Source: Escherichia phage vB_EcoM_I14.1
Reading direction: 5' to 3' (one strand)
Length of the DNA: 64,000 nucleotides
Sequence record: PP892526.1
This document shows positions 1,769 to 58,844 of this stretch, in pieces. Within the stretch, counting starts at the first letter, position 1; each line of letters opens with the position of its first letter. The notes beneath the pieces are model-generated. The model did not search any database. It was not told the origin of the DNA and worked only from the letters and a program-made list of their open reading frames with translations. The translations under genes and the position numbers were made by a program.

Positions 1769-2233
1769 TTATCGTAAAACTTGGTAAGCTGGTACTGCAA
1801 ACTTGTTGCTATTGTTCCTAATAAGGTCTTCTTCTGTTACTAAGAATGTAATCCCACATAAGTGCGTATAGTGGCTGTCATACTCGAATATTTTAAGTAA
1901 GTATTTACCATCATGATAAACAGATTCTACTACACCTTTTGCAACAATCTTTCCAGTCTTGAAGTCTTTAAGAGGGTATGTATTACCAACTTTAGGGACT
2001 GTTTTCACTTCAGGTTCTTTTAGCTTCTCACCAGCTTCTACATCACCTAGTAAGTGAGAACTTTCAAATGCTACATATTGCATGTAAACTTCTGAGCATT
2101 CCCAGATAAAACAGTGTACAAGAACCTTAGCAGCATGTCTTGAGCAATTCAGCTTATCACAAATCTCTTTGTACATTTCGTCTTTAGATGAGTTGTCAAG
2201 CATTGCTTTTCGAACGACTTCTTTAATTTTCAT
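1769..2233 (-). CDS. hypothetical protein
   Basis: 154-aa ORF, ATG with GGAGAG upstream, same-strand operon. Confidence 0.6.
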   Translation of the reverse strand: MKIKEVVRKAMLDNSSKDEMYKEICDKLNCSRHAAKVLVHCFIWECSEVYMQYVAFESSHLLGDVEAGEKLKEPEVKTVPKVGNTYPLKDFKTGKIVAKGVVESVYHDGKYLLKIFEYDSHYTHLCGITFLVTEEDLIRNNSNKFAVPAYQVLR

Positions 2234-2651
2234 AAGCTCTCCGAATAACCCTATTAAGCATCTCTAAAGTCAGCTTTCCAGATTCTAAATGTGGCATAAT
2301 GAGCTTTAAAGCTTCTTCAACATCATGCACGACATCTATTATACCTTCTTCATAGGCTTCTACAAGGATATCTTTTACGTTTTGTGGGTTAACTTTTTGC
2401 GGTATCACTAGACGCATATCAAACTCATTTGCTTGAGGATGGTTCTTACCTTGCCAATAACCGTCTTTGTTAAAGCTGATGTAGTCACCGTGGTAAAAGT
2501 GTACACCATTAGCTTTAAACTTCTCCAGCACAAGGCATTGAATTGGGTATTGAGTATTCCACTCCCTGACTCCTATAACCTTCACTGTTGCGATGTACTC
2601 CTGTGTTTTTGCATCTATGATGTCAAGTTCTTGACCAGCTATGATTTGCAT
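2223..2651 (-). CDS. hypothetical protein
   Basis: 142-aa ORF in operon context. Confidence 0.6.
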   Translation of the reverse strand: MQIIAGQELDIIDAKTQEYIATVKVIGVREWNTQYPIQCLVLEKFKANGVHFYHGDYISFNKDGYWQGKNHPQANEFDMRLVIPQKVNPQNVKDILVEAYEEGIIDVVHDVEEALKLIMPHLESGKLTLEMLNRVIRRAYEN

Positions 2652-2705
2652 ATTCGCTACCTTATAAGTTCCTACAAAGGGGCTATCAAGTAACCCCCTA
2701 AGTTA

Positions 2706-2930
2706 TTACTCAGACTCTTCAGTCTTCTTATCAGATTTCTTACTAGTCTTCTTCTCAGCTTTCTGCTCAGGTTCCTTCTCAGAAGTTGCCTTGATAACCA
2801 TATCAAGAAGCTCTGATAAATCACTCTTCAGCAAAGTAACAGGCTGCTCATTGTAGAAGTTTTTGTCAAGATAAACTTTGAACTCTTCAATAGAAGGAAA
2901 TCCAAAAATTGGTACAGGTGTCTTAATCAT
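2706..2930 (-). CDS. hypothetical small protein with Lys/Glu-rich C-terminus
   Basis: 74-aa ORF. Confidence 0.5.
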   Translation of the reverse strand: MIKTPVPIFGFPSIEEFKVYLDKNFYNEQPVTLLKSDLSELLDMVIKATSEKEPEQKAEKKTSKKSDKKTEESE

Positions 2931-3006
2931 TACTTAGTTTCTCCATAAGCATCTTTCAAGATTGCCTTGTTAATCATTTCAGCGATTGCAAAACGAACAC
3001 ATACAG

Positions 3007-3510
3007 CTATAATTGTAGGTTGCATTCTTTACTTACCTCTTCAAGTTTAATCTCTGAGTCCTTAAGTCGTTTCTTATGAACTCTGAATCTCATTAGTGCG
3101 ATGATGATACCAACTAAAGGAACAGCATACAAGTACCAAACATCATATACTTTTGCGGTAACCTGTGTAATGGTCAAATCTTGAGCTATGGAACTGATTG
3201 CTGATACTGCCAGCAATGTTGCTAAGAAAAATGCCAGTACCATTACCGTACTTAAACAACCTCTGGCATGGTGTTCATGCTTAATGCACTTATTCTTTTC
3301 GTCAACAACCCTGTTATAGTCGTTTGTAAAGTCTCTGTAGAAAGCTTTCAAGTATTCTTTATTGTAGCCTTCAAAGCAACCTGTACCGTACCAATAATCA
3401 CCACCAAAATGTGCTATGATACCAGTGTCCCCATTCGGTTTAGTTACTCTCAAAGAGGTGTGATGACGAGTGTCTTGATAGTCTATTTTGTATCTTTCTT
3501 CGTAAATCAT
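3007..3510 (-). CDS. hypothetical membrane protein (two C-terminal hydrophobic helices)
   Basis: ORF 3007..3540; ATG at 3510 forms ATGA overlap with upstream stop; hydrophobic segments LAFFLATLLAVSAI and YAVPLVGIIIALM. Confidence 0.55.
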   Translation of the reverse strand: MIYEERYKIDYQDTRHHTSLRVTKPNGDTGIIAHFGGDYWYGTGCFEGYNKEYLKAFYRDFTNDYNRVVDEKNKCIKHEHHARGCLSTVMVLAFFLATLLAVSAISSIAQDLTITQVTAKVYDVWYLYAVPLVGIIIALMRFRVHKKRLKDSEIKLEEVSKECNLQL

Positions 3511-4737: not shown

Positions 4738-5020
4738 TAAACTCTCTGACGAAGAAATAGTTGACTTTATTATTACCTACCATAAGGTCAAAGCAGGTAT
4801 TCTCAAAAGGTTTGTTGTAGGCATCATATGAAGTGTACGTATCAGCTACTTGTTTAGTATTGAGCTTTTTACTTGATGGATTTAAGAGGCCACCATACAG
4901 TTTCTTGATAGCCTCTTCTACAACAGACCAGATAATTTCGTCGGTAATTTCTTCGTACAGGTCAAGTTCACGCTCTAGTGAGAAGTCACAAATAGGGAAG
5001 ATAACCTGTACTTTGCTCAT
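4727..5020 (-). CDS. hypothetical protein
   Basis: 97-aa ORF. Confidence 0.55.
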   Translation of the reverse strand: MSKVQVIFPICDFSLERELDLYEEITDEIIWSVVEEAIKKLYGGLLNPSSKKLNTKQVADTYTSYDAYNKPFENTCFDLMVGNNKVNYFFVREFNDE

Positions 5021-5415
5021 TAACGAATAACCTGTGTGACTTGAATTGCTTCAGTTACGGACAAATCACCAACTTTCTCTTCTTTGATGAAAGTAAAGGT
5101 GAGTTCAACAGGTTCTTGCTCTTCTTGCTCAACTGGAATACCGTTAAGCTCATCAAAGATTGATTGGGTAGTCCAGTCTTCTCCACCATCTGGATAATGG
5201 ATGGCATAAAGAGGAAACTCTAAATTATACCAAGCAAAAACAGGACAACCATCTGCATCATCTCGGCATCTGTGGAGGTACGTATTTGTACCTTCAAAAT
5301 GCAAATGAAGATTGCCATTCTTCTCAAATAGAAGAGCATCTCGCAGGTCTAGTTCCTCATTTTCGCTGTAACGACTGACATCAACTTTAACGTGGATATG
5401 ACTGTTATTATTCAT
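5020..5415 (-). CDS. hypothetical protein
   Basis: 131-aa ORF. Confidence 0.6.
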   Translation of the reverse strand: MNNNSHIHVKVDVSRYSENEELDLRDALLFEKNGNLHLHFEGTNTYLHRCRDDADGCPVFAWYNLEFPLYAIHYPDGGEDWTTQSIFDELNGIPVEQEEQEPVELTFTFIKEEKVGDLSVTEAIQVTQVIR

Positions 5416-5806
5416 AAAAACCTCTCTCTGCTTGTTCGATTTTTGCTCTTAAAGTTTCGCAATGCTGTAAATGGTAGTTAGCTTCTTGTTCATGTGTTGC
5501 TAACTGCCTTTCAAGAACAGTTTTATAGTAACCTGCAAGTTGCTCTTTTGTCAATGGGTGCTCTGAAATAATATCAAGTCCACTTTCACCAAGAGGATTG
5601 AATTGTCCATGCTCATTGACATTGTAAGTCTCAAACTTGAACATACCATTGTTCACAGACTCAATAGGTGACAGTTCAACAAGCTCTACAGTAAACCGTG
5701 TATACACCTTGTCGCCTCTTGAAACTACATTGTTTCCGACAATGCGTACAAGCGAACCATTACGAGTATACTTAAAAGTCCCAAAGTCACTGGCCCAAAG
5801 CTTCAT
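5408..5806 (-). CDS. hypothetical protein
   Basis: 132-aa ORF. Confidence 0.6.
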   Translation of the reverse strand: MKLWASDFGTFKYTRNGSLVRIVGNNVVSRGDKVYTRFTVELVELSPIESVNNGMFKFETYNVNEHGQFNPLGESGLDIISEHPLTKEQLAGYYKTVLERQLATHEQEANYHLQHCETLRAKIEQAERGFYE

Positions 5807-5820
5807 AGTTTTCTCCTTAG

Positions 5821-5847
5821 AAAATAAAAAAGGCTCCCGAAGGAGCC
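5821..5847 (-). terminator. rho-independent terminator after endolysin gene
   Basis: GGCTCC-ttcg-GGAGCC hairpin plus T-run on minus strand. Confidence 0.75.
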
Positions 5848-5857
5848 TATGAAGATA

Positions 5858-6322
5858 TTACTTTGGATATATACTGTCAAGATAAATGTCAGCTTCCATT
5901 CTACGTCTGTTTTTCAAGCCGTTTGAAGTGACCTTCTTACCTTTGACTGTAATCTTGTTCCACCACTGCATAGCTTCTGCACAACCTACCTTATTACCAG
6001 CATTGTGGCGCTTGATAAATGTAGAATCCTGCATAGCTGTGATACCGATGTTGTATGTTTCACTTACAAGTGCATCGAACTCATTCTGAGAAGTTGTAAC
6101 CTTGATAGCTTTGTTCACTGCTGCAACAAACTTTTCAACATCTGCGAGAAGATACTGTTCAGCTTGTTCAGCCGTGATTTTCATACCCATCTTAACAGGT
6201 TTACCAGAAATACGGATTGTACCATACCCAATTGTTGGGATTCCGGCAGAGTCTTCGTAAGCCTCTAACTTCAGACCTTCAAAGAACTTAATAGCCTCTA
6301 AACCTTTTCTTGAGAGTTGCAT
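5858..6322 (-). CDS. endolysin, T4-type lysozyme (glycoside hydrolase family 24)
   Basis: N-terminal motif EGLKLEAYEDSAGIPTIGYGT (catalytic Glu/Asp/Thr pattern of phage lysozymes), 154 aa. Confidence 0.85.
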   Translation of the reverse strand: MQLSRKGLEAIKFFEGLKLEAYEDSAGIPTIGYGTIRISGKPVKMGMKITAEQAEQYLLADVEKFVAAVNKAIKVTTSQNEFDALVSETYNIGITAMQDSTFIKRHNAGNKVGCAEAMQWWNKITVKGKKVTSNGLKNRRRMEADIYLDSIYPK

Positions 6323-33606: not shown

Positions 33607-35075
33607 TGGCAGGACTAACTACAACAGGATTACAAACTCTAAGATATCAGGAGATTTTTGATAATATCAAATCAAGACTTCTTAGAGATATTTCACCAAA
33701 CCTTGACGTTTCTGAAGATAGTCAATTAGGACTCTTCCTAGCTTCAATTGCAAGGTCTTTAGCAGATACTCATGAGATTCTATCAGAAGTCTACGATGGG
33801 GGTACAATTGATAAGGCTGAAGGCTTTAACCTTGATGATATTACAGCTTTAAATGCGGTATACAGATATGTTGCTCAGGCAACAAGAGGTCAAGTTGAGT
33901 TTACTGGAACGACTGGTGCTACCATTCCTTCAACAACAAGATTAAGAAGTACTGCCGGAAACATCTTTTATCCAGTTAATAATATTACCCTTACTCCATC
34001 ATATTGTGTTGAAGCTGTCCTTGAAGTTAACTCTTTACGAACTGATGCAGATTATGTTATTATTATTGATAACGTCATTTTCTCATATAAACCAACCTCA
34101 TCAGACACAATCACCACGCTTCTAACAAAATTGGCAGAGGCTATTAATGGTGGTATTGTAGCAAAAGCAGAAGTCATTAATGATGGAGCCGCATTAAGAG
34201 TCTATAAAGATGAGGGCGATATCATTGCAAGAACAAACCCTATGGTTGTCACTGCAACAACGTTTCTGACCTTTACAAAAATTACAACTATTTCAGATGT
34301 AGTAGCTGAAGAGGTGGGTGCTACCCCTGCTTTGGCTGGTACACTTATTGAGATTGAGACAACTGTTGATGGTCTTGACAGTATTTATAACAGGTATGAC
34401 TTAACAACTGGTAGAAACGAAGAAACTGACACAGAACTTAGACAGAGATATTTAGAATCTTTAGCAGTTACTGGTGTAGGGACTTTGGATGCAATTGTAG
34501 CTGCTGTTAAAAGAGTTCAAGGTGTCTCAGATGCTTCAGGTGTTGAGAATGATACTGAAGAGACAAGCTCAGAAGGTCTTCCACCAAAATCTTTTAAGAT
34601 TGTTGTAGTTGGTGGTCAAAATGATAATGTTGCTCAAGCAATCTGGGATACAAAACCTGCTGGTATTAGGGCTTATGGCTCAATTTTTGGTACAGCCCAT
34701 GATTTAGGTGGTTTGGCACATAATATTTATTTTAGCAGACCAACACCAAAATACGCATTTGTTAAAGTCTCTTACTCTTTATATGATGAAGAAAGCTTGA
34801 CAATCCCTGAAGAGGATATCAGAGACAGCATTGTACAAGGTATTAATGCCTACGGAAGAACTCTTAAGGTTGGTAATGATGTTATCCCTAACAGAATCTA
34901 TGGACATATCTATGACGTAATTAAAGGTATTGAGATTAATGAAGTTAAAGTAGCATTATCAAATAGCCAATCAGTTCCACCTAGTGACGGGCAGTATACT
35001 ACAGCAAGAATTACTGTTGACGGTGACCAATATACTGTTTGGGAAAGCAGTCAGTATACCATCACTAAGGAGTAA
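33606..35075 (+). CDS. baseplate J-like protein
   Basis: 489 aa; N-terminal pattern and position typical of baseplate J family. Confidence 0.5.
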
Positions 35076-37458: not shown

Positions 37459-39996
37459 ATGGCAGATTACAAATTGAGTCAGTTAAACTCAATCGACACA
37501 ATTCGTTCAGAAGACCTATTGCACATCAGAGTTAAGAAAAGACCTAAAATGTTGGGTGACGAAGACCGTAGAATGACCTATCAAGACTTCTTAGCATCTT
37601 TTAAACTTGAAAGATTTGTTCAGATTGCTGGTAGTACTATGACAGGTGACTTAGGGATTGTTAAGTTACTTTATGGTGGTAAGGCAGTATTTGACCCAAC
37701 AGGCTCTTCTGAGGTTACTATTGGGGATATTTTAAAGACTTTTAAAATTAATTCAAATGGGCTTAAACTCACTATTGCAGATGCCACAAGGTCGGCAACT
37801 GTTTATCATACTTTGAACAAACCAAGCCCTAATGAACTTGGCATGAGAACTAATGAAGAGAATGATGCAAGATATGCAAGGCTTGCTGTTACAAACACAT
37901 TCTCTGGAACTCAGAACATTCAAGGTGATGCTAACTTACTTCGCCTTAGAAACCGAAATGCAAACAATGCACAATACATTGAAGGTGTAAACCTAGATGG
38001 TTCAGCTAGATGGTGGGTTGGTATTGGTAGCAATGGTTCTGACGAAGTAAAACTGTACAATAACAAATACAACTCAGTCTTGACTGTTGCAAGTAATATC
38101 TCTGTTAATAAATCTTTAGCAATCACTGGACAAGTTCAACCTTCAGATTTCTCTAACTTAGATGCTAGATACTTCACTCAGACAGTTGCTAATCAGAGAT
38201 TTGCACAGTTAGCTGGCAATAATACTTTTACAGGTGCTAACACTTTCACTAGCCTTGTTGTTAAGAAGAATGCTAATGCTATTACTTTGCAGAATACTGA
38301 TACAAGTACAGCACTTTACATTCTCGGTAAGAAGTCTGATGGAACAAATAAATGGTATGTTGGTACAGATTCTGACGAGACACGTCTGAACATTTATAAC
38401 TACCTTACAGGTTCACAGGTTTCACTAGGTACTACTATTGGTATCAATAAGACTGTGCAAATCACTGGACAAGTTCAACCTTCGGATTGGGCTAATATCG
38501 ATTCTAGATATATTCCGGCAGCAACATTAAGTACGATTGCAAGAACTAATGCTGCTAATACATTCTCTGCACAACAGGTTATCAACGCTGATGGTGAAGC
38601 TCTTGCGTTAAAAGCAAAAACTGCAACGTCATTATTTATTAGAGGTAAGGATGTTGATGGAACCAGCAAGTGGTATGTTGGTAATGGTGATGCCAGTGAT
38701 ATCTTAAACCTGTATAACTACAAGACAGGTAAAGGGCTTAACATTGGTTCAGTATTTGAAATGAATGCAACTTTAGCAATCACTGGACAAGTTCAACCTT
38801 CTGATTGGGCTAATATTGATGCAAGATACTTTACGCAAAGTGCTAGTGATGGTAGATACCTGAGAGTCAGAAGTACTGGCTTCAATAATGGAAACGTTGA
38901 AAAGTGGGCTAAAATTGCTACTGTCGTTATGCCGCAATCCGCATCTACTGCGGTGATTGAAGTGTTTGGTGGGTCTGGTTTTAATGTTAACGCACCACAC
39001 CAAGCAGGTAAGTGTGAGATTATTTTACGAACATCAAACAATAACCCAAAGGGTTTAAATGTTGTAGCTTGGAGAACCGCAGAGAATACCATTGTCACAG
39101 ATATTGGTTATGTTAACACATCTGGCGACACTTATGATATTTACTGTAGGGTCGGTACGTACCAAAATGGTACAACATCAAGAGTTCAATCTTCTAGCAA
39201 TGCAAGTGTGCAGCTATTTGAAGTCCCACAAACGTTTGATGATGCCCCACAAGGTATTGTGAAGGGTACAATTGCAAAATACTACACAAGTTTGCAAAAG
39301 CCAACCCCTTCAGATATCGGTGCATATACTAAAGCTGAAACTGACCAGAAAATTGCAGAAGCAATCAGTGACTCTACAGACCTGAATAAAATCTATCCAG
39401 TCGGTATTGTGACGTGGTTTAACAGTAATGTTAACCCTAATACAGCACTTCCTGGTCTAACTTGGACGTACCTGAACAATGGTGTTGGCAGAACTATTAG
39501 AATTGCAGCAGCAAATGGCTCAGATGTTGCTACAACTGGTGGTTCAGACTCTGTAACGTTATCTGTTGGTAACTTACCTTCACACACGCATAGTTTCTCT
39601 GCTACCACTTCATCATTTGATTATGGTACTAAGACTTCTAGCACAACTGGTAACCATAACCACAACAGGGGGACTATGGAGATTACTGGTACAGTAGGTT
39701 ACTTCAGAAGTGATTCTAGCAGCTTCTACACAGCAAGTGGTGCATTCACACTTGGTAGTTCAACTGCTTCTAAAGGTTTTACTGGTTCTAACTTCACTTA
39801 TGGTATCCCTGCTAACTTCAATGCGTCAAGAACTTGGTCTGGTGTAACGAATACAACAGGTAACCACAGCCACACTGTTGGTATTGGTGCTCACAGCCAC
39901 ACAGTTAGCGGTAACACAGGTGGTACTGGTTCTGGTTCAGCATTTAGTGTTACTAACCAGTTCTACAAGTTAATGGCTTGGGTAAGAACTGCTTAA
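37459..39996 (+). CDS. long tail fibre protein with three internal ~110-aa repeats and HxH tip
   Basis: ATG 37459 with AAGAGGAAA RBS (track start 37390 overlaps previous gene); triplicated ITGQVQPSD(F/W)(S/A)N(L/I)D(A/S)RY; C-terminal HTHSFS, GNHNHN, GNHSHTVGIGAHSHTV. Confidence 0.8.
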   Translation: MADYKLSQLNSIDTIRSEDLLHIRVKKRPKMLGDEDRRMTYQDFLASFKLERFVQIAGSTMTGDLGIVKLLYGGKAVFDPTGSSEVTIGDILKTFKINSNGLKLTIADATRSATVYHTLNKPSPNELGMRTNEENDARYARLAVTNTFSGTQNIQGDANLLRLRNRNANNAQYIEGVNLDGSARWWVGIGSNGSDEVKLYNNKYNSVLTVASNISVNKSLAITGQVQPSDFSNLDARYFTQTVANQRFAQLAGNNTFTGANTFTSLVVKKNANAITLQNTDTSTALYILGKKSDGTNKWYVGTDSDETRLNIYNYLTGSQVSLGTTIGINKTVQITGQVQPSDWANIDSRYIPAATLSTIARTNAANTFSAQQVINADGEALALKAKTATSLFIRGKDVDGTSKWYVGNGDASDILNLYNYKTGKGLNIGSVFEMNATLAITGQVQPSDWANIDARYFTQSASDGRYLRVRSTGFNNGNVEKWAKIATVVMPQSASTAVIEVFGGSGFNVNAPHQAGKCEIILRTSNNNPKGLNVVAWRTAENTIVTDIGYVNTSGDTYDIYCRVGTYQNGTTSRVQSSSNASVQLFEVPQTFDDAPQGIVKGTIAKYYTSLQKPTPSDIGAYTKAETDQKIAEAISDSTDLNKIYPVGIVTWFNSNVNPNTALPGLTWTYLNNGVGRTIRIAAANGSDVATTGGSDSVTLSVGNLPSHTHSFSATTSSFDYGTKTSSTTGNHNHNRGTMEITGTVGYFRSDSSSFYTASGAFTLGSSTASKGFTGSNFTYGIPANFNASRTWSGVTNTTGNHSHTVGIGAHSHTVSGNTGGTGSGSAFSVTNQFYKLMAWVRTA

Positions 39997-43777: not shown

Positions 43778-44161
43778 TCAAATACCTGTGCAGCTTCTGT
43801 TTTCTAAGAAATACTCAACACCATACATAGCTTTTTGCATCAAATCTTCTTTAAACTGAATACGATGATTAAGCATAGCCTGTACATCAATATCATCATG
43901 GTGCTTCTCTTTAATATTTGCAGATTGCAGGAAATACTCTGCAAGAACACGATACTGATAGTCAGTTACCTTGTCAGTCATCTCTGTTAAAGATTCTTCA
44001 GAGATTGGTTTAAGTAACTCACCATTAGCCAAAGCAACACCTTTAACAATCTGGCAAGTATCTTCTGGAACACCTGATAAGTCCACATTTGGAAGTTCTG
44101 TTGCATTGACTGGTAAATTCATTGCCATAACCATTGCAGCAGCTAATAAAATCTTTTTCAT
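43778..44161 (-). CDS. secreted/periplasmic protein (signal peptide)
   Basis: N-terminal MKKILLAAAMVMAMNLPVNA signal-like sequence. Confidence 0.6.
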   Translation of the reverse strand: MKKILLAAAMVMAMNLPVNATELPNVDLSGVPEDTCQIVKGVALANGELLKPISEESLTEMTDKVTDYQYRVLAEYFLQSANIKEKHHDDIDVQAMLNHRIQFKEDLMQKAMYGVEYFLENRSCTGI

Positions 44162-46119: not shown

Positions 46120-47220
46120 TTATTCGTAGTCTCGAATAACGAGGCCAACAGGAAACTGTAAAGAACCCTTACGAGTCATCTTCTGGAACTGAACCGTTAA
46201 AGGCTTCCCAATAAACTCTTCAGGATGTTCAGCAAGATACTGTTTCTTCTCATGAGTAGTCTTCCATGAGACATCTACAAAGACGTTAGGAAGAGTCTCT
46301 ACAACGAACTTGCCATGACCACGCTTATCAGTCTTTACACCAGTCACTTTAAATTCTTCAGTGTGCATCTTCTTGTGCTTAATCAAGAAGTACGAACGGT
46401 GACAACACTCATAGAAGGAGTCTTCAGAGATTGAACGGTACATTGCACCTTCAAACTTAGCTTCAACCCACTTATCATGAGCTTCATCAAACTCTTCCCA
46501 AGAATTTACACGACGAGACTTAACAGGAACAACTTTACAGCCATCTCTGAAGTCATTCAATGGTGAAGTCTCAATGATATCTCTACGCTCAGGCCACGTC
46601 TTAGTGCTGTCACAGATGTCGTACCAGTAAAACTGGAGTAGATGTCGGTCTGGATTGTCAGCATTCTTAATCATAGACACAATATCTTCTAAGTCCCAAC
46701 CATGAGCATAAATCTCACCATCAAAGTCTTCGACTTGTGGATGCAATTTAAGCAACAAAAGCAAATCTGGGATTAGTTCTGCTGGGACGTTGTAAACAGC
46801 ATTCTCACGAGAATAAGCCGTGAAGCTAACTGAATCAGCATCTCTTGAAATTCTACAACGTACACCATCAAGTTTTGGTTGAGCATCAGCAGGGAATATC
46901 AAATACTTTGCATGACTCACCTTTGCAGCATCATGAGCAAGCTGTACACCTACCTTCTCAGTATTCTGTGCAGACTCTTTTGTGTAAGCATAGCCTTTGC
47001 GGTCAATTTGCTTTTTATACTTAGCAGCAACTTCAAAGAGAGCTTGCTGTTCAGCGTTACGCTCATTCTTTTTACCGATGTTTTTCGGTTCTGCTGTGTA
47101 CTCTTCAAACATCATCTTGCCATTTTCTTTACCGTAGGTTGTAATAACTTTGTCGCCTACAGCAACGCATGACCATACGTTGAAAGAGCCATCTTTATTT
47201 TGTTTGTACAGTATTGTCAT
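46120..47220 (-). CDS. ATP-dependent DNA ligase
   Basis: Adenylation motif PKLDGVRC; ATG at 47220 directly after upstream stop (track start 47256 overlaps). Confidence 0.85.
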   Translation of the reverse strand: MTILYKQNKDGSFNVWSCVAVGDKVITTYGKENGKMMFEEYTAEPKNIGKKNERNAEQQALFEVAAKYKKQIDRKGYAYTKESAQNTEKVGVQLAHDAAKVSHAKYLIFPADAQPKLDGVRCRISRDADSVSFTAYSRENAVYNVPAELIPDLLLLLKLHPQVEDFDGEIYAHGWDLEDIVSMIKNADNPDRHLLQFYWYDICDSTKTWPERRDIIETSPLNDFRDGCKVVPVKSRRVNSWEEFDEAHDKWVEAKFEGAMYRSISEDSFYECCHRSYFLIKHKKMHTEEFKVTGVKTDKRGHGKFVVETLPNVFVDVSWKTTHEKKQYLAEHPEEFIGKPLTVQFQKMTRKGSLQFPVGLVIRDYE

Positions 47221-47221
47221 T

Positions 47222-47413
47222 TTATTCCTCTGAGTGATACCAAGTGTTGCAAGCATTACATGCGTAAAGCTCTAAGTCATTTTTATCTGGTTTATGAAAA
47301 CAGTTTGCTCCGCAGTGGCAACGAAACGGCTTTCCACCAACTGTCAGGATGAAAGATTGAACCTTTCCATCAGGAGTTCGTACAGCATTTTTATGCTTAT
47401 CTTCTTTGTTCAT
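47222..47413 (-). CDS. small Cys-rich (zinc-binding) protein
   Basis: 63 aa with CHCG..C..CNAC pattern. Confidence 0.55.
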   Translation of the reverse strand: MNKEDKHKNAVRTPDGKVQSFILTVGGKPFRCHCGANCFHKPDKNDLELYACNACNTWYHSEE

Positions 47414-47616
47414 TTTCTCTTACCACCAATCTCTACGTCAATAACCTGAACATCACCAGCAACATCAAACTTGTGAATGATGCTTTCCACAGTGTAAGTC
47501 CAACCATCGATGCGAACCAATTCACCTTCTCGTGGGACTATTGGGTTACGTTGAGCTACGGTTGTAGTGGAGTGAACAACATCATAACAATAGATATAGT
47601 TTACTAGGACTTCCAT
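47410..47616 (-). CDS. hypothetical protein
   Basis: Track ORF 47410..47715 overlaps lipoprotein gene; ATG at 47616 with GAGG RBS removes overlap. Confidence 0.5.
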   Translation of the reverse strand: MEVLVNYIYCYDVVHSTTTVAQRNPIVPREGELVRIDGWTYTVESIIHKFDVAGDVQVIDVEIGGKRK

Positions 47617-47626
47617 CGTGAAAACC

Positions 47627-47863
47627 TCACTCAATAACCGTAGTATGTGATTGACCATTTTTGCCATAGCTATAAGATGTTGTTGTTTGAGAGTTTGGAC
47701 ATCTGACAACAACAATATCTCTGCTTATGGCATCGCCATGTAACTTGTAGACTTTGCAATCTTGCATCTCTGGTGGGAGGCTATAAGAAGCATTTTTATC
47801 CTCGTAAGAGGGATTGCAGCCAGCTAGAAAAATAACACCAAGCACAATTACTGCTTTCCACAT
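47627..47863 (-). CDS. small lipoprotein (signal peptide + lipobox LAGC)
   Basis: MWKAVIVLGVIFLAGC N-terminus, 78 aa. Confidence 0.65.
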   Translation of the reverse strand: MWKAVIVLGVIFLAGCNPSYEDKNASYSLPPEMQDCKVYKLHGDAISRDIVVVRCPNSQTTTSYSYGKNGQSHTTVIE

Positions 47864-47877
47864 AGCACTTCTCCTAT

Positions 47878-48033
47878 TTACTGTTCACGATGTTCTACTT
47901 CTCTATATGTACGCCGGTAGTATATGATGAGCTGTGCTAAGTCGCTACTTTTAACATCTGAGCGTAACAGTTGCCAATCAAAACCTTTACCGACCCTTCC
48001 ATATAAACTAAAGAATTTTACTTTGCGTTTCAT
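47878..48033 (-). CDS. small basic protein (51 aa), absent from ORF track
   Basis: Hand translation MKRKVKFFSLYGRVGKGFDWQLLRSDVKSSDLAQLIIYYRRTYREVEHREQ; fills the gap between two minus-strand genes. Confidence 0.45.
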   Translation of the reverse strand: MKRKVKFFSLYGRVGKGFDWQLLRSDVKSSDLAQLIIYYRRTYREVEHREQ

Positions 48034-48050
48034 TTTGGTGTTCCCAATAC

Positions 48051-48278
48051 TCAGAGGTCAATGCTAATACGTTCACCCTTAAGGACTCCTGTACGGTCTC
48101 TTGCAATCTTACCGTCAACAATAAGGATATGCGCAGACTTTAAAGATTCACTATTAAAACCTTTTACGAACTTACTAGGCATCACCACAATAAGCATCTC
48201 TTGAATCAACTCTGGAGTATAGCAATTGTCGTGAAGTTGCTGAATAACATCTGCAAGTGTCATTTTTGGTGTCTCCAA
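48051..48278 (-). CDS. small protein, paralog of 48466..48675
   Basis: Shared MTLxxxxxQL..ExxLIVxxxS..GKIA(R/K)D(R/K)TG(V/Y)LKGER(I/V) pattern. Confidence 0.6.
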   Translation of the reverse strand: METPKMTLADVIQQLHDNCYTPELIQEMLIVVMPSKFVKGFNSESLKSAHILIVDGKIARDRTGVLKGERISIDL

Positions 48279-48469
48279 TACTCAATGTCAATAAGTTCTT
48301 GTGCAATGCTTTTCAGATTACCTTTCAAGAAAACCTTCTCAGAACCTGAAAGAGATGAATTGTCAATTAACCTGTTCATTCTCTCAAACAACTTCTGTTT
48401 ACGATTCTTGATAGTTTCCTTTGAAGCACCTTTCATCATCGCTGCATGGGTTCTTCCACGGTGGCTCAT
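48260..48469 (-). CDS. hypothetical basic protein
   Basis: 69-aa ORF between the paralogs. Confidence 0.5.
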   Translation of the reverse strand: MSHRGRTHAAMMKGASKETIKNRKQKLFERMNRLIDNSSLSGSEKVFLKGNLKSIAQELIDIEYWRHQK

Positions 48470-48675
48470 AGTAAACTCTCAATATTTACACGCTCACCTT
48501 TTAAGTAGCCTGTCTTATCTTTTGCGATTTTACCTCCAGCAATAAAGATATCTACTCTACGTAGAACTTCAGGGTTTACCCTAGAACTACTGCAAATGAC
48601 AATAAGCATACTTTCAATCTCTTTTTGAGAATACCCAGCACATTGCAACTGTACTTCAATCTCTGAAAGTGTCAT
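48466..48675 (-). CDS. small protein, paralog of 48051..48278
   Basis: See paralog. Confidence 0.6.
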   Translation of the reverse strand: MTLSEIEVQLQCAGYSQKEIESMLIVICSSSRVNPEVLRRVDIFIAGGKIAKDKTGYLKGERVNIESLL

Positions 48676-48736
48676 GTGACCTCCTATACAAGATACAGTA
48701 TAAGGTACTCTTCCATGAGCACCTTGTCAATATTAA

Positions 48737-51436
48737 TTAGTGTACTTCAAGCCAGCTTTTACCAACCTTACCAGTACCTGTTACAAGTGTTTCTTTCTTA
48801 AGACCTAAGTTCTTAGAAGCTTGCCCATAATACCAGTCAGTAACTGCTTTCACTTCTGCCGTCATACTTTCTGGACATTCCCAACTCGTTTCATCGTGAT
48901 ATGCGCAGAGCAAGCGAGCACCAATAGCTGGTTGACGACCATTCAACTTCATCAAACCTTCGTCAATCATACGACGACAAGCAAGGTTAATTGCCTCATT
49001 TTGAATCTGAGCCTCTGAACCCATCAAAAGATAGTTCAACAGTTTGTGTGGAGATTTACACCACAACCAAGCTCCAGCAACCTTTACAAAACCCCCTTTA
49101 GAGATTGCAGCAGTCTTACCAAACACCTCTTCAAGTGCTTTTTTAGTCGCTTTGTAGTCAGCTTCCAAGTCATCAAGCAGCTTCTTAATTTTAGGCAAAC
49201 GAATAAAGTAAGTCTGTTTAGTCAGTGCACCTTCCTGAGTAGTTGCAGCTTTAATCGTCTTAGCAAACTTCTCATCACCTGCACCGAACAGCAGTGCATA
49301 GATACCATTCTTAGCTTTCTTACGACCCTTACTAATCTCATGAAGAAGATTCTCATCCTGAGTAGCTCGGCAAGTCAAGATATCCTGCTCATCATTCAAG
49401 CTAAAGTAAATACTGTTCAGTGTGTGTGCATCAGTCCCTGAATAGACAACGTAAAGGTCATTCTCAGAGTCATAGCGTAGGTACTTATCAATCTCTGGAT
49501 TGAGGTACTCATCAAAGTGTTTGCAGTAATAGCGTCCATCTTCTTGACGAATAAACTCAATCTCTTCTTTACCTTGCGTTACCGCTTTGGTGAAGTCTTT
49601 GTCACCCATAAAGTTACAAAGAAGAACTAGCTGGGCTGAGTTCATGTCTACAGAGACAACGTTAGTACCTTCTTCACAAATCCACACTGCCCTCATTGGT
49701 TCCCCATAGACAGCAGCACCAGACGGTACGTTTACAATACCATACTGTGTCATACGCCCAGTTGAAGTACCAAATACCATTGCACCAGCACTAAGGCGAC
49801 CATCAGGACGAATCTGGTTCAGCCAACCTTTTTCATCATCCTTTGAGTTCTCAATAGTTCTGCGTCGGTGCATCAAAGTATAGTACTTAGCAATCTTCTG
49901 TCCAAGCTCACCTTCAATCGTATCATAAGATGATTCAGTAAGCTTTGGTGAAGTCCTAATCAGACAAGGTTCAAGTAAATCTGTGTACTTCTTCACAGAC
50001 CAGTTATGCTCAATGTACTGGACACCTTCATGTTCAACATAACTCAACCCACACCGTTCAACCATCTCCTGCCACTTAGGATGCTTTGTAATCATCTTTT
50101 TGTTGTCTTTGAAACGACAAACTTTGACAGGGCGACCGTCTGAATCTTTCTTGTAGTTCCAGTCATCTGGAATCCAACCAACTGATTTCAAATAGTCTTT
50201 AACAACTGCTACCTGAGTCATACGAGAAACTTCGAACTCAATTGGTGTATATGGTGCATCAATCAAACCTGTGTAGCGACTTGACTCAAGCTCAAAGTGG
50301 TTAACAACATGGCTGTTATAGTACTTCACAGTTTTAACTGTTTTTACTGGCTTCCAATCTTTGCATTTCTTACCAATCTTTGCATTCAACTCATTGCAAA
50401 TTGCACGAGCATCCTTCATTGCTACAAAACCTTCCTTGTACTCTTCACCAGTTACAGAGTTGGTTGGTGTATAGCAATTCCGCTTTTCAATGTTAAAAAT
50501 CTTTGTAGTTGGCTTACCAAATGGCTTGATTTCATATGTCTGCATCTCACCGTTACGTACCTGCTGACGATACTTTGTCTTAGGGTACTTGGTAATTCTC
50601 TTCAATCCATCTGCATGCCCGAATGCTTCAACATACTCATTCCAAGCTTTTGCAAACTCTTCTCCAGTGACTTTACCTTTGGTCTTAATAGTTGGTGGAA
50701 GGTGTGGTTCAACTTCTGAAGCAAGCTCATTAGTCAACTTGTCAAGTTCCTTTACATGAAACTCCATAAGTTCTTTATCAGCTTTCCAACCATTGATAGC
50801 TTGTTGACTCATCCAGAAAGATGTTTCTTTAGCTCGCATGTAGGTTTCATAAGTATCTACGCCACACTTCTTCAGCTTGAGATATTCATTATCCAGTGCG
50901 CGTTTAGTTTTGGCGTTAATACGGATATCTTCTACAACACGAGTGAAGATTTCTGCATTCCACACACCCCAATGTTCAATCTCTGGTTTACGTACACCAA
51001 CACGAGCACCCCATGCTGCCAAGCCATGAGCGCCTTTATAGCCTTTTGGAGTTGGTCTATCCATCCACTGAACACGAGACTGGATAAGAGAATCCTGAAA
51101 GAAATTACTCCACGGCTTACACTTTGGATTATCAAAGTTCCACAAATCAGGTGCAATGTGATTGAAAACCCACCAGTCATATCCCAGACCATTATGGATG
51201 CAAAGTCGTTTTGCCTTTAACGCAAACTCAACACCTTCACGCAAGCCACCCTTAATGTACTTGGTATACTTGTGACCGAGGATAGGTTCATCTGTAAAGA
51301 CCCATACAGGCGGCTCTTCATCGTCAGATTTATAGTCTGCGAAAGCCATTACGTGCACTTTAGTGAACTCAAGGAGTAAACCATCAGTTTCTGTATCACC
51401 AACTAAATGTAAGTTTTTAAAATCTACGTTTTCCAT
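48737..51436 (-). CDS. DNA polymerase, family A, with 3'-5' exonuclease domain
   Basis: Exo motif LVGDTETDGL; motif B KNGIYALLFGAG; motif C YHDE; ATG at 51436 with GGAGT RBS. Confidence 0.85.
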   Translation of the reverse strand: MENVDFKNLHLVGDTETDGLLLEFTKVHVMAFADYKSDDEEPPVWVFTDEPILGHKYTKYIKGGLREGVEFALKAKRLCIHNGLGYDWWVFNHIAPDLWNFDNPKCKPWSNFFQDSLIQSRVQWMDRPTPKGYKGAHGLAAWGARVGVRKPEIEHWGVWNAEIFTRVVEDIRINAKTKRALDNEYLKLKKCGVDTYETYMRAKETSFWMSQQAINGWKADKELMEFHVKELDKLTNELASEVEPHLPPTIKTKGKVTGEEFAKAWNEYVEAFGHADGLKRITKYPKTKYRQQVRNGEMQTYEIKPFGKPTTKIFNIEKRNCYTPTNSVTGEEYKEGFVAMKDARAICNELNAKIGKKCKDWKPVKTVKTVKYYNSHVVNHFELESSRYTGLIDAPYTPIEFEVSRMTQVAVVKDYLKSVGWIPDDWNYKKDSDGRPVKVCRFKDNKKMITKHPKWQEMVERCGLSYVEHEGVQYIEHNWSVKKYTDLLEPCLIRTSPKLTESSYDTIEGELGQKIAKYYTLMHRRRTIENSKDDEKGWLNQIRPDGRLSAGAMVFGTSTGRMTQYGIVNVPSGAAVYGEPMRAVWICEEGTNVVSVDMNSAQLVLLCNFMGDKDFTKAVTQGKEEIEFIRQEDGRYYCKHFDEYLNPEIDKYLRYDSENDLYVVYSGTDAHTLNSIYFSLNDEQDILTCRATQDENLLHEISKGRKKAKNGIYALLFGAGDEKFAKTIKAATTQEGALTKQTYFIRLPKIKKLLDDLEADYKATKKALEEVFGKTAAISKGGFVKVAGAWLWCKSPHKLLNYLLMGSEAQIQNEAINLACRRMIDEGLMKLNGRQPAIGARLLCAYHDETSWECPESMTAEVKAVTDWYYGQASKNLGLKKETLVTGTGKVGKSWLEVH

Positions 51437-51494
51437 TTTTACTCCCTCTAAAATCATTAACCTCATACATTACTGCAAAAAATTATAAAAAGCA

Positions 51495-57316: not shown

Positions 57317-58357
57317 ATGGAGAAGTATACGCTAACAAAACTTCCCGATTCAGTTACACATGTCTTTATCGACTCTGACAGTATTGCCTATAAAGGTGCT
57401 TGTGTAGTTGAGAAAGCAAAATATAAATATGTCAATAAACTCACAGCAGAAGAATCTGAACCATTTGATAATGCAAAAGATGCAGCAAGATGGTTAGCAG
57501 ACCAGAGAATCCTTGTAGAAGAGCTTGGCCTAGCATTTGATGAAGATGAATGGGAAAGACAGACTTGGAAAGAAGCTAAGAGTGAAAAAGAAGCTATCAT
57601 GGCTACTCAGCAGGTTCTTCAGGAATGGCTTAAGGTTGTTGGTAAAGAAAGAACTTGGGTAGGTTACTTAACAGAGAAGGGTGTACATAAACATAAAGAC
57701 ATTAAAGGTCTTGAGCACCAATATCAAGGTAACCGTAAAGAGGCTGTCACACCAACACACTTAGTTGCTTGTCGTGAATATCTTTTATCCAGACCAGAGT
57801 TCAAACTCTTAAAGGGTGGCTTCGAAGCCGACTCAATCGTTATTGCTAAAGCTGAAAAGATGGGTAAGAAAGCTGCTCTTATGAGTATTGACAAAGACCT
57901 TCGACAAGCTGAAGGGACTTATTGTATTGATATGACTTATGAAAAGTCACCACTAATTTTTATTGCTGATAATAATGTTGGTGATATCTGGGATTGCCCT
58001 ATCAAATCAAAACCAAAAGCTGCAAAAACAGTTGGTGTAGGTTTTAAATTCTTGTGTTATCAGGCTGTTGCTGGAGATAATGCAGACAACTACTTCGGCC
58101 TTAAAGGTGCTGGCAAAGTAGCTGTGATGAATGCTTTAGATGGTAAAGAGACCTATAAAGAGTGTCTTGACGCTATCTATGAACTCTATGCTAAAAAAGA
58201 CTCTTATACCTATGTGTCATGGGATGGACAGACTGTCACAAAGACACCATTAGAGTTAATGGAACAGCATTTCTGGATAGCATATCAAGAGAGAAATCCA
58301 AAAGATAATTTCTCTTTTAAGAAATATAATTGGGAGCCGTGTATGAATGAAGATTAA
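57317..58357 (+). CDS. 5'-3' exonuclease (T7 gp6-like)
   Basis: Segments SIDKD and GDNADNYFGLKGAG resemble T7 gene 6 exonuclease (from memory). Confidence 0.55.
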   Translation: MEKYTLTKLPDSVTHVFIDSDSIAYKGACVVEKAKYKYVNKLTAEESEPFDNAKDAARWLADQRILVEELGLAFDEDEWERQTWKEAKSEKEAIMATQQVLQEWLKVVGKERTWVGYLTEKGVHKHKDIKGLEHQYQGNRKEAVTPTHLVACREYLLSRPEFKLLKGGFEADSIVIAKAEKMGKKAALMSIDKDLRQAEGTYCIDMTYEKSPLIFIADNNVGDIWDCPIKSKPKAAKTVGVGFKFLCYQAVAGDNADNYFGLKGAGKVAVMNALDGKETYKECLDAIYELYAKKDSYTYVSWDGQTVTKTPLELMEQHFWIAYQERNPKDNFSFKKYNWEPCMNED

Positions 58358-58844
58358 AGGATTTGGCAATTGTCCTACCTATGGTCATTGGGTATCTTTA
58401 TGTGGGGAAGTTGACCCCACTAAACATTTTGGTTTTGTCTATTTAGTACACTGTAAGAAAACCGGACAATATTATATTGGAAAGAAACAGCTTAATAGCG
58501 TGACCAAAAGAAAAGTTGCTGGCAAGACTCGGAAGAAGGTAGTCACTAAGGAGAGTGATTGGATGACTTACGAGACTTCTTCTGAGTATATTAAAAAAGA
58601 TATTGAGAGCTTTGGAAAAGAATTTTTTGACTTTTACATTATCCAAACCTACTACACGAAAGGTGGCCTAGTTTATGGTGAAGCAAACCTCCAACATAAA
58701 TTCGATGTAATGACAAAAAGGATTGACTCTAAGCTCAGACTCTTCTACAATGCCAATATTGCAGCAATTAAGTTTATCACTAAAGAAACTTATGAAGATG
58801 CTGAAAAAAGAATCCATAAGGTAATGAAAGCAAATTGTGCTTGA
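58347..58844 (+). CDS. GIY-YIG domain protein
   Basis: N-terminal FGFVYLVHCKKTGQYYIGKK matches GIY-x(8-10)-YIG. Confidence 0.55.
   Translation: MKIKGFGNCPTYGHWVSLCGEVDPTKHFGFVYLVHCKKTGQYYIGKKQLNSVTKRKVAGKTRKKVVTKESDWMTYETSSEYIKKDIESFGKEFFDFYIIQTYYTKGGLVYGEANLQHKFDVMTKRIDSKLRLFYNANIAAIKFITKETYEDAEKRIHKVMKANCA

Follow-up and report, generated by a model that had tools for sequence, protein, structure and literature searches.

In the 64,000-nucleotide stretch of Escherichia phage vB_EcoM_I14.1 analyzed here (sequence record PP892526.1; hereafter the window), a small open reading frame (ORF) lies on the minus strand between the genes for DNA polymerase and DNA ligase. Its product, 78 amino acids long (MWKAVIVLGVIFLAGCNPSYEDKNASYSLPPEMQDCKVYKLHGDAISRDIVVVRCPNSQTTTSYSYGKNGQSHTTVIE) and opening with the residues MWKAVIVLGVIFLAGCNPSY in the ORF translation, looks like a prolipoprotein and matches phrog_902, a family listed as being of ‘unknown function’, over residues 1–76 (E=4.2e-17). 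The features of the gene and its surroundings are as follows.

46120–51466, minus strand: the leftward replication operon, from the ORFs and from the annotation of the identical region of phage E9 and of phage Moogle.
47627–47863, minus strand: coding sequence of the predicted prolipoprotein, a phrog_902 member, with 78 codons plus stop and an ATG start (ORF list and sequence).
47871–47875, minus strand: Shine-Dalgarno sequence AGGAG, read directly as the reverse complement of ctcct, 7 nucleotides 5′ of the ATG.
47819–47863, minus strand: signal peptide, residues 1–15 (MWKAVIVLGVIFLAG), with removal by signal peptidase II predicted from the sequence.
47816–47827, minus strand: lipobox L13-A14-G15-C16, in which Cys16 is the predicted lipid-attachment residue and mature N-terminus.
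47630–47818, minus strand: mature protein, residues 16–78, with a tether of about 12 residues followed by a small predicted beta-sheet domain (alignments and AlphaFold2).
47756–47758, minus strand: codon of Cys36, an invariant column in both broad family alignments and a candidate disulfide partner.
47699–47701, minus strand: codon of Cys55, inside the motif VVRCPNS, likewise invariant in both broad alignments and the second candidate disulfide cysteine.

The start of the gene is well defined. An in-frame stop 8 codons 5′ of the ATG leaves no alternative start, and Moogle40, the orthologue in Moogle, has an annotated ribosome-binding site in the equivalent position. The signal peptide consists of the n-region MWK, with a basic Lys3, and a nine-residue h-region, AVIVLGVIF, an architecture comparable to that of the listed homologues. 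Immediately after the Cys16 codon (47816–47818), the +2 residue is Asn17 both here and in every Felix-like orthologue that we translated, which predicts sorting to the outer membrane under the E. coli Lol rule (no Asp at +2). When all ORFs and start codons of the window were scanned with a lipobox regular expression, the only hits were this ORF and one spurious antisense ORF.

By itself a lipobox counts for little, as it could arise by chance, and it is conservation that settles this as a lipoprotein gene. The protein is 100% identical in Escherichia phages vB_EcoM_E9 (CDS0080) and D4 and 98.7% identical in wV8, and across 72 pairs of Felix-like orthologues the median ratio of nonsynonymous to synonymous substitution rates was 0.074, indicating strong purifying selection. 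Among 117 diverse homologues LAGC was the commonest lipobox form (22/117), with LTGC, LVGC, and LSGC also common. The gene thus very probably encodes a real, exported, and conserved phage lipoprotein, the lipidation itself being predicted. The sequence-only reading of this DNA had described a 78-residue ORF at 47627–47863 with a signal peptide and an LAGC lipobox, and the ORF, its ribosome-binding site, and its conservation bear this out. The check which that reading had proposed, prediction of the signal peptide and lipobox, was likewise favorable: the lipobox consensus held family-wide, and the Pfam model LPAM_1 matched 5 of 24 family members, with a best E of 4.6e-4. It had also placed the gene in an early or replication operon of a phage with a Gram-negative host, and both statements were correct, as the gene sits between those for DNA polymerase and DNA ligase in a Felixounavirus of E. 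coli O157, one of the relatives of the myovirus Felix O1.

Beyond the signal peptide, the family is marked by conserved motifs. The family pattern is Y-x-L-P-x-E-L-x-D-C-K, followed by V-V-R-C-P-N-S-x-T-T-T and then G-K, and the window protein carries the first two elements as LPPEMQDCK and VVRCPNSQTTT. Cys16, Cys36, and Cys55 are invariant in all 117 of the diverse homologues, and VVRCPNS is invariant in a narrower third alignment. Cys36 and Cys55 probably form an intramolecular disulfide, as suggested by the predicted periplasmic location and by their invariance as a pair. With the family alignment as input, AlphaFold2 returned a small domain of five antiparallel beta strands. A Foldseek search of this model against the PDB found nothing (best E=1.5), and the structural matches in BFVD were exclusively to uncharacterized family members from Yersinia, Aeromonas, and Vibrio phages. 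The structural comparisons therefore confirm that the family is coherent and give no hint of its function. Many members from outside the Felix-like phages (e.g., P0019, P0023, P0026, P0140, and P0158) have extended C-termini that contain the short pattern (V/I)-(V/I)-(D/N)-G-x-x-Y once or twice, and some of the extended members have an additional CGKxC cysteine pair.

The family to which this protein belongs is large and widespread. Exhaustive phmmer searching of 1.84 billion cluster representatives (50% identity clusters) with a cut-off of E≤1e-3 recovered at least 511 representatives, nearly all of them 72–130 amino acids long and equipped with a lipobox, and distant homologues from five other lineages also matched phrog_902. 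By tblastn, 585–600 GenBank phage records carry a member. The carriers include Felix-like phages (Ounavirinae), about 290 T5-like Vibrio phages, Vequintavirinae (4MG, A7_1, phiTE, and PBES02), Straboviridae (T4-like phages of Acinetobacter, Aeromonas, Vibrio, and Pseudomonas), Obolenskvirus, Saclayvirus, Plateaulakevirus, and jumbo phages, and those that we inspected are large virulent phages. The motif is kept in phages of Escherichia, Vibrio, Aeromonas, Acinetobacter, Pseudomonas, Pectobacterium, and other hosts. Copies that are 96–97% identical occur at 94364–94597 of GU169904 (‘Staphylococcus phage SA1’) and 33825–34058 of MG065664 (‘Campylobacter phage A132’); a Felix-O1-like gene in phages so named suggests that these records are mislabelled, chimeric, or contaminated.

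Outside phages we found next to nothing. We scanned 185,579 bacterial and archaeal species, one genome apiece, for the motif, and the only true relative came from Hylemonella gracilis, a result that is a lower bound since the scan detects only members with the exact VVRCPNS of the narrower alignment. A single relative among so many species genomes suggests that the family is essentially restricted to phages. The Hylemonella copy encodes 92 amino acids (NZ_AEGR01000062, 5983–6261 of the fetched stretch) and lies in an apparent variable island, where ORFs judged by eye include an XRE-type regulator-like protein, another lipobox protein, a 488-residue protein with a hydrophobic N-terminus, and a trio of 314, 82, and 639 residues.

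Hundreds of database records already contain the ORF under the name ‘hypothetical protein’; it has no characterized relative, and phrog_902 is without a curated Pfam or NCBIfam model. For the window protein, Pfam, NCBIfam, and PADLOC gave nothing past signal-peptide-level matches. The label PF16225 appears as a precomputed assignment on close homologues (P0001–P0011); it was not reproduced when the window protein and 24 family members were run against current Pfam with hmmscan at E≤10.

We then considered the genomic settings in which the family is found. On the minus strand of the window, the operon runs from the DNA polymerase gene (48737–51466) through four small ORFs, the lipoprotein gene, and two further small ORFs to the gene for an ATP-dependent DNA ligase (46120–47256). 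The six small neighbors belong to phrog_2381, 4230, 5180, 4427, and 5768, all of unknown function, and no membrane segment is present in any of them. Two of them, ORFs of about 70 codons at 48051–48263 and 48466–48675 between the polymerase and lipoprotein genes (both minus strand), match phrog_4230 at E=2e-41 and 1e-33 and are paralogues separated by one unrelated 69-residue ORF. Just 5′ of the ligase gene, the 63-residue phrog_5768 ORF at 47222–47413 (minus strand) has a CxC...CxxC pattern (CHCGANC...CNAC) that suggests a zinc ribbon. A second exported protein of the same leftward early region is encoded at 43778–44161 (minus strand); it has 127 residues, belongs to phrog_4332, of unknown function, and carries a typical cleavable Sec signal peptide, with MKKILLAAAMVMAMNLPVNA before the predicted cleavage site and TE after it.

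In other lineages the surroundings change and the lipoprotein gene does not. All-against-all BLAST of the ORFs in the flanks (about 3.5–6 kb on each side), performed on 6 and then 19 loci, identified no conserved partner gene: within the fetched flanks of the 19 loci, the lipoprotein gene was the only one common to different lineages. The family thus behaves as a stand-alone accessory gene, usually located in an early or replication region. In the T5-like Vibrio phage D386 the member lies near genes for a ligase and helicases, and in Acj61, a T4-like Acinetobacter phage, the member p058 lies near the primase gene 61. Small membrane proteins flank the family gene in 4MG, RYC, AsFcp_4, and one jumbo phage. 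In Acinetobacter phage Aci01-1, a gene of the PspA/IM30 membrane-stress family is located two genes 5′ of the family member, at 2218–2916 of the fetched stretch.

Two of these contexts place the lipoprotein gene beside a gene related to a known exclusion factor.

5001–6067 of the fetched GU911519 stretch: the p058/Spackle region of Acj61, with its T4 counterpart at 1967–3052 of the fetched T4 stretch.
5654–5866 of the fetched QH4 stretch: the Imm gene of the Obolenskvirus Acinetobacter phage vB_Aba_QH4.

In Acj61, p058 is followed after a 28-nucleotide gap by p057, a homologue of Spackle (phrog_1586, E=9e-17), and then by 61.1 and 61. The p057 gene is unannotated in its record, and its match to the Pfam model T4_Spackle, at E=2e-4, falls short of the family threshold. 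The order mirrors sp-61.2-61.1-61 of T4, with the lipoprotein gene added just 5′ of sp. In QH4, an Imm_superinfect gene (PF14373, E=8e-14) lies on the same strand, 410 nucleotides 3′ of the family member.

Taken together, these observations lead us to propose that the phrog_902 lipoprotein probably acts on the envelope of the infected cell. What it does there we can suggest only tentatively, and we put receptor-independent exclusion or envelope protection at somewhat short of an even chance. The protein would be made from a transcript shared with the replication genes, early or in the middle of infection, and, following the standard lipoprotein pathway, would be exported by Sec, lipidated at Cys16, and sorted by Lol to the outer membrane, as the Asn at +2 predicts. 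There the tether of about 12 residues would hold the predicted five-stranded domain of about 50 residues, probably stapled by Cys36 and Cys55, in the periplasm. Through a surface formed by the invariant LPxELxDCK and VVRCPNSxTTT motifs, the domain may bind an envelope component that is conserved across Proteobacteria; the distribution of the family points to such a conserved component as the target and not to a phage-specific receptor. The envelope of the infected cell would be altered in a way that protects the ongoing infection, the likeliest effects being that the periplasmic entry step of later phages is blocked or that lysis from without is resisted. Such a role would be comparable to that of T4 Spackle and Imm, unlike the receptor plugging by Llp and Cor. 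For exclusion in this broad sense, the Spackle gene in Acj61 and the Imm gene in QH4 offer weak support. The reading of the sequence alone had named the gene a candidate for superinfection exclusion, and at that general level its interpretation stands as a legitimate hypothesis.

Several observations weigh against this proposal. When we searched with phmmer for Spackle and Imm near family members, Acj61 and QH4 were the only 2 of about 24 contexts in which either was found, so that the evidence from guilt by association is weak and anecdotal. Neither gene neighbors the lipoprotein gene in the Felix-like context, and its immediate neighbors in the window are all small soluble proteins of unknown function. 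At the +2 position, 19 of the 117 homologues have D, compared with 18 for N, 17 for T, 16 for E, and 15 for S; with Asp in 19 and so variable a residue across the family, the membrane of residence may not be uniform. Confidence in the structural model is only moderate, with a mean predicted local distance difference test score of 72.7 over the whole protein and 68.4 over its mature region. The names in the source databases are all ‘hypothetical protein’, and our searches, made within a literature library, found no study of the gene in Felix-like phages.

The same envelope location could serve an end other than exclusion. The protein may be a takeover or counter-defense factor that inhibits or hijacks a conserved periplasmic or outer-membrane component of the host, for which the candidates include peptidoglycan hydrolases and the lipoproteins that regulate them, sensors of envelope stress, machines of outer-membrane biogenesis, and defenses that act at the envelope. 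A surface motif that stays invariant among phages of many Proteobacteria implies that the target in the host is conserved, and the near absence of the family from bacterial genomes and its presence in virulent phages are consistent with such a role, as are the presumed co-expression with the replication genes, the PspA/IM30-like gene upstream of the family member in Aci01-1, and the location of the single bacterial copy in a variable island. However, no similarity to any known inhibitor or defense family emerged from the PADLOC, Pfam, and NCBIfam searches, and the neighboring Spackle and Imm genes point to exclusion rather than takeover. We consider this explanation unlikely on balance, and it is hard to separate from exclusion or envelope protection by computation alone.

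A more specific possibility was raised by the sequence-only reading, which drew an analogy with small phage lipoproteins that block the phage’s own receptor. In this mechanism, known from Llp and Cor, the lipoprotein binds the periplasmic face of its own outer-membrane receptor and closes it allosterically, which would prevent superinfection and the loss of progeny on cell debris. The general format is similar, as the protein shares with Llp a length of 77–78 residues as a prolipoprotein, early expression, and a predicted intramolecular disulfide (PMC9586334). Three distant family members match phrog_1119, ‘Cor superinfection exclusion protein’, marginally (E from 6e-4 to 3e-3), with the signal peptide and tether accounting for most of the aligned region, and one jumbo-phage homologue is annotated as a ‘lytic conversion lipoprotein’. 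In D386, moreover, our lipobox scan detected no lipoprotein next to the pb5-like gene, which in principle leaves the role of Llp in that phage to the family member.

The similarity does not extend beyond format. We regard the phrog_1119 matches of the distant members as driven largely by the signal peptide, and the window protein has no phrog_1119 match even at E≤1. BLASTP against T5 Llp, taken from the T5 genome, gave E=0.2 over the signal peptide only, and the family profile run against the PDB touched the Llp chain 8a60_B only at residues 1–18 (E=4.2). Alignment of the mature domains with hhalign returned a probability of 0.3% against an Llp alignment that is shallow at five sequences, a homologue search with Llp having yielded only 4 close relatives, and that did not include the Cor proteins. 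Nor was structural similarity to Llp (PDB 8a60 chain B) found, and the two cysteines are 19 residues apart here versus 47 in Llp. The position of the gene also differs. The llp and cor genes adjoin a receptor-binding gene (PMC9586334), and in the T5 genome llp abuts oad, but no tail-fiber or receptor-binding gene adjoins the lipoprotein gene either here or in six annotated loci from five other lineages (D386, QH4, 4MG, fEgEco12, and Acj61); in the window, the tail-fiber gene ends at 39996, about 7.6 kb away, with nucleotide-metabolism genes in between. Felixounaviruses depend on the lipopolysaccharide (LPS) core, and no protein receptor is known for them (PMC8594841; PMC13196588), whereas Llp and Cor require an outer-membrane protein, typically a TonB-dependent transporter. 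Finally, Llp occurs in just 34 records, none below 90% identity, while phrog_902 is broad across hosts and receptors, a range much too wide for a blocker of one specific receptor. Lacking similarity to Llp, in a different gene position, in a phage of a group that depends on the LPS core, and in a broad family, the protein gives the analogy no support, and we judge receptor masking to be improbable.

Least credible of all is a role in lysis, with the protein as the outer-membrane subunit of a two-component spanin (equivalent to Rz1) or as an accessory to it, which we dismiss because curated spanins lie at other loci. The idea arises from the scattering of lysis genes in Felix-like phages (PMC4319497), in which an orphan small outer-membrane lipoprotein could be an o-spanin; the protein has a marginal match to phrog_6073, ‘Rz-like spanin’, over the signal peptide only (E=0.24), and the upstream neighbor of the family member in 4MG is an 81-residue membrane protein that is annotated ‘Rz-like spanin’ and matches phrog_6073. 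The curated spanins of Felix01 (5330–5841), 4MG (57951–58643), and phiTE (107563–108249) (Kongari 2018, PMC6139136) are, however, far from the family members in those genomes. Moogle encodes its i-spanin in gene 122 and its o-spanin in gene 121, next to the gene for polynucleotide kinase and with rIIB one gene beyond, and the same laboratory annotated Moogle40 as ‘hypothetical’; the Rz-like spanin of E9 maps to 78042–78389, outside the window, and the spanins of D386 to 86.7–87.4 kb. A tblastn search with the Moogle i- and o-spanins found nothing in the window. No adjacent gene encodes an N-terminal transmembrane segment, the mature domain is predicted to be rich in beta structure and has just 4 prolines among its 63 residues, in contrast to typical o-spanins, and the gene is grouped for expression with replication rather than late genes.

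Receptor-independent exclusion or envelope protection is therefore the role that we favor, at the tentative strength given above, and it can be sharpened into a proposal that we find doubtful but worth stating: phrog_902 may be a receptor-independent family that docks on a single conserved machine in the periplasm or outer membrane of Proteobacteria and either seals the cell against later phages or silences an envelope stress or defense response. If true, the family would be a ‘lytic conversion’ factor of a mechanistically new class, with no relationship to Llp/Cor, Spackle, or Imm, and at least eight unrelated phage lineages would carry it as a mobile early gene that stands alone. Few parts of phage genomes are understood as poorly as the small exported proteins, and each of the few that have been studied (Llp, Cor, Spackle, and Imm) brought to light its own means of manipulating the envelope. 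The family is carried by phages used in biocontrol and typing, among them Felix O1-like, rV5-like, and T5-like phages; receptor-independent exclusion, if it occurs, would bear on interference within phage cocktails and would point to a conserved and vulnerable envelope target. Should the protein have no measurable effect, it would be one more conserved accessory gene.

Comparison with known systems helps to place the family. Like T5 Llp and the Cor family (phrog_1119), the phrog_902 protein is an early prolipoprotein of about 77–78 residues from a virulent phage, with a classical lipobox, predicted sorting to the outer membrane and placement in the periplasm, and two conserved cysteines in its mature region. 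It differs in that similarity of sequence, profile, and fold is undetectable, in its cysteine spacing, and in the absence of an adjoining receptor-binding gene. The phage described here, as a felixounavirus, probably uses the LPS core, as opposed to a TonB-dependent transporter, and the family spans at least 511 clusters, against the 34 records of Llp.

With T4 Spackle (Sp, gp61.3) and Imm, the protein shares the character of a small early exported envelope protein and, if our proposal is correct, protection that is independent of the receptor. The proteins are nonetheless non-homologous: neither T4_Spackle (PF25676) nor Imm_superinfect (PF14373) in Pfam matched the window protein or the 24 family members at E≤10. 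Spackle has a signal peptide without a lipobox and is soluble and helical, and Imm is a membrane protein, whereas the phrog_902 protein is a predicted lipid-anchored beta-sheet domain.

The o-spanins (lambda Rz1 and the JH2/Felix01 family; Kongari et al., 2018) are likewise small phage outer-membrane lipoproteins with conserved periplasmic cysteines. The phrog_902 gene, in contrast, is without an adjacent, overlapping, or embedded i-spanin gene, the spanin pair of the phage being at another locus, and its product is predicted to be a beta-sheet protein that is not proline-rich and is encoded in an early operon. The exclusion lipoproteins of Rtp-like and other small siphophages, which target LptD or LamB (PMC9586334) and which we compared by description only, resemble it in the proposed action on an essential, conserved outer-membrane machine; their genes, however, lie directly 3′ of gpJ or the receptor-binding locus and track receptor specificity, and phrog_902 genes do not. 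Set beside these systems, the phrog_902 protein is best described as a new, non-homologous variety of small early envelope-acting phage lipoprotein.

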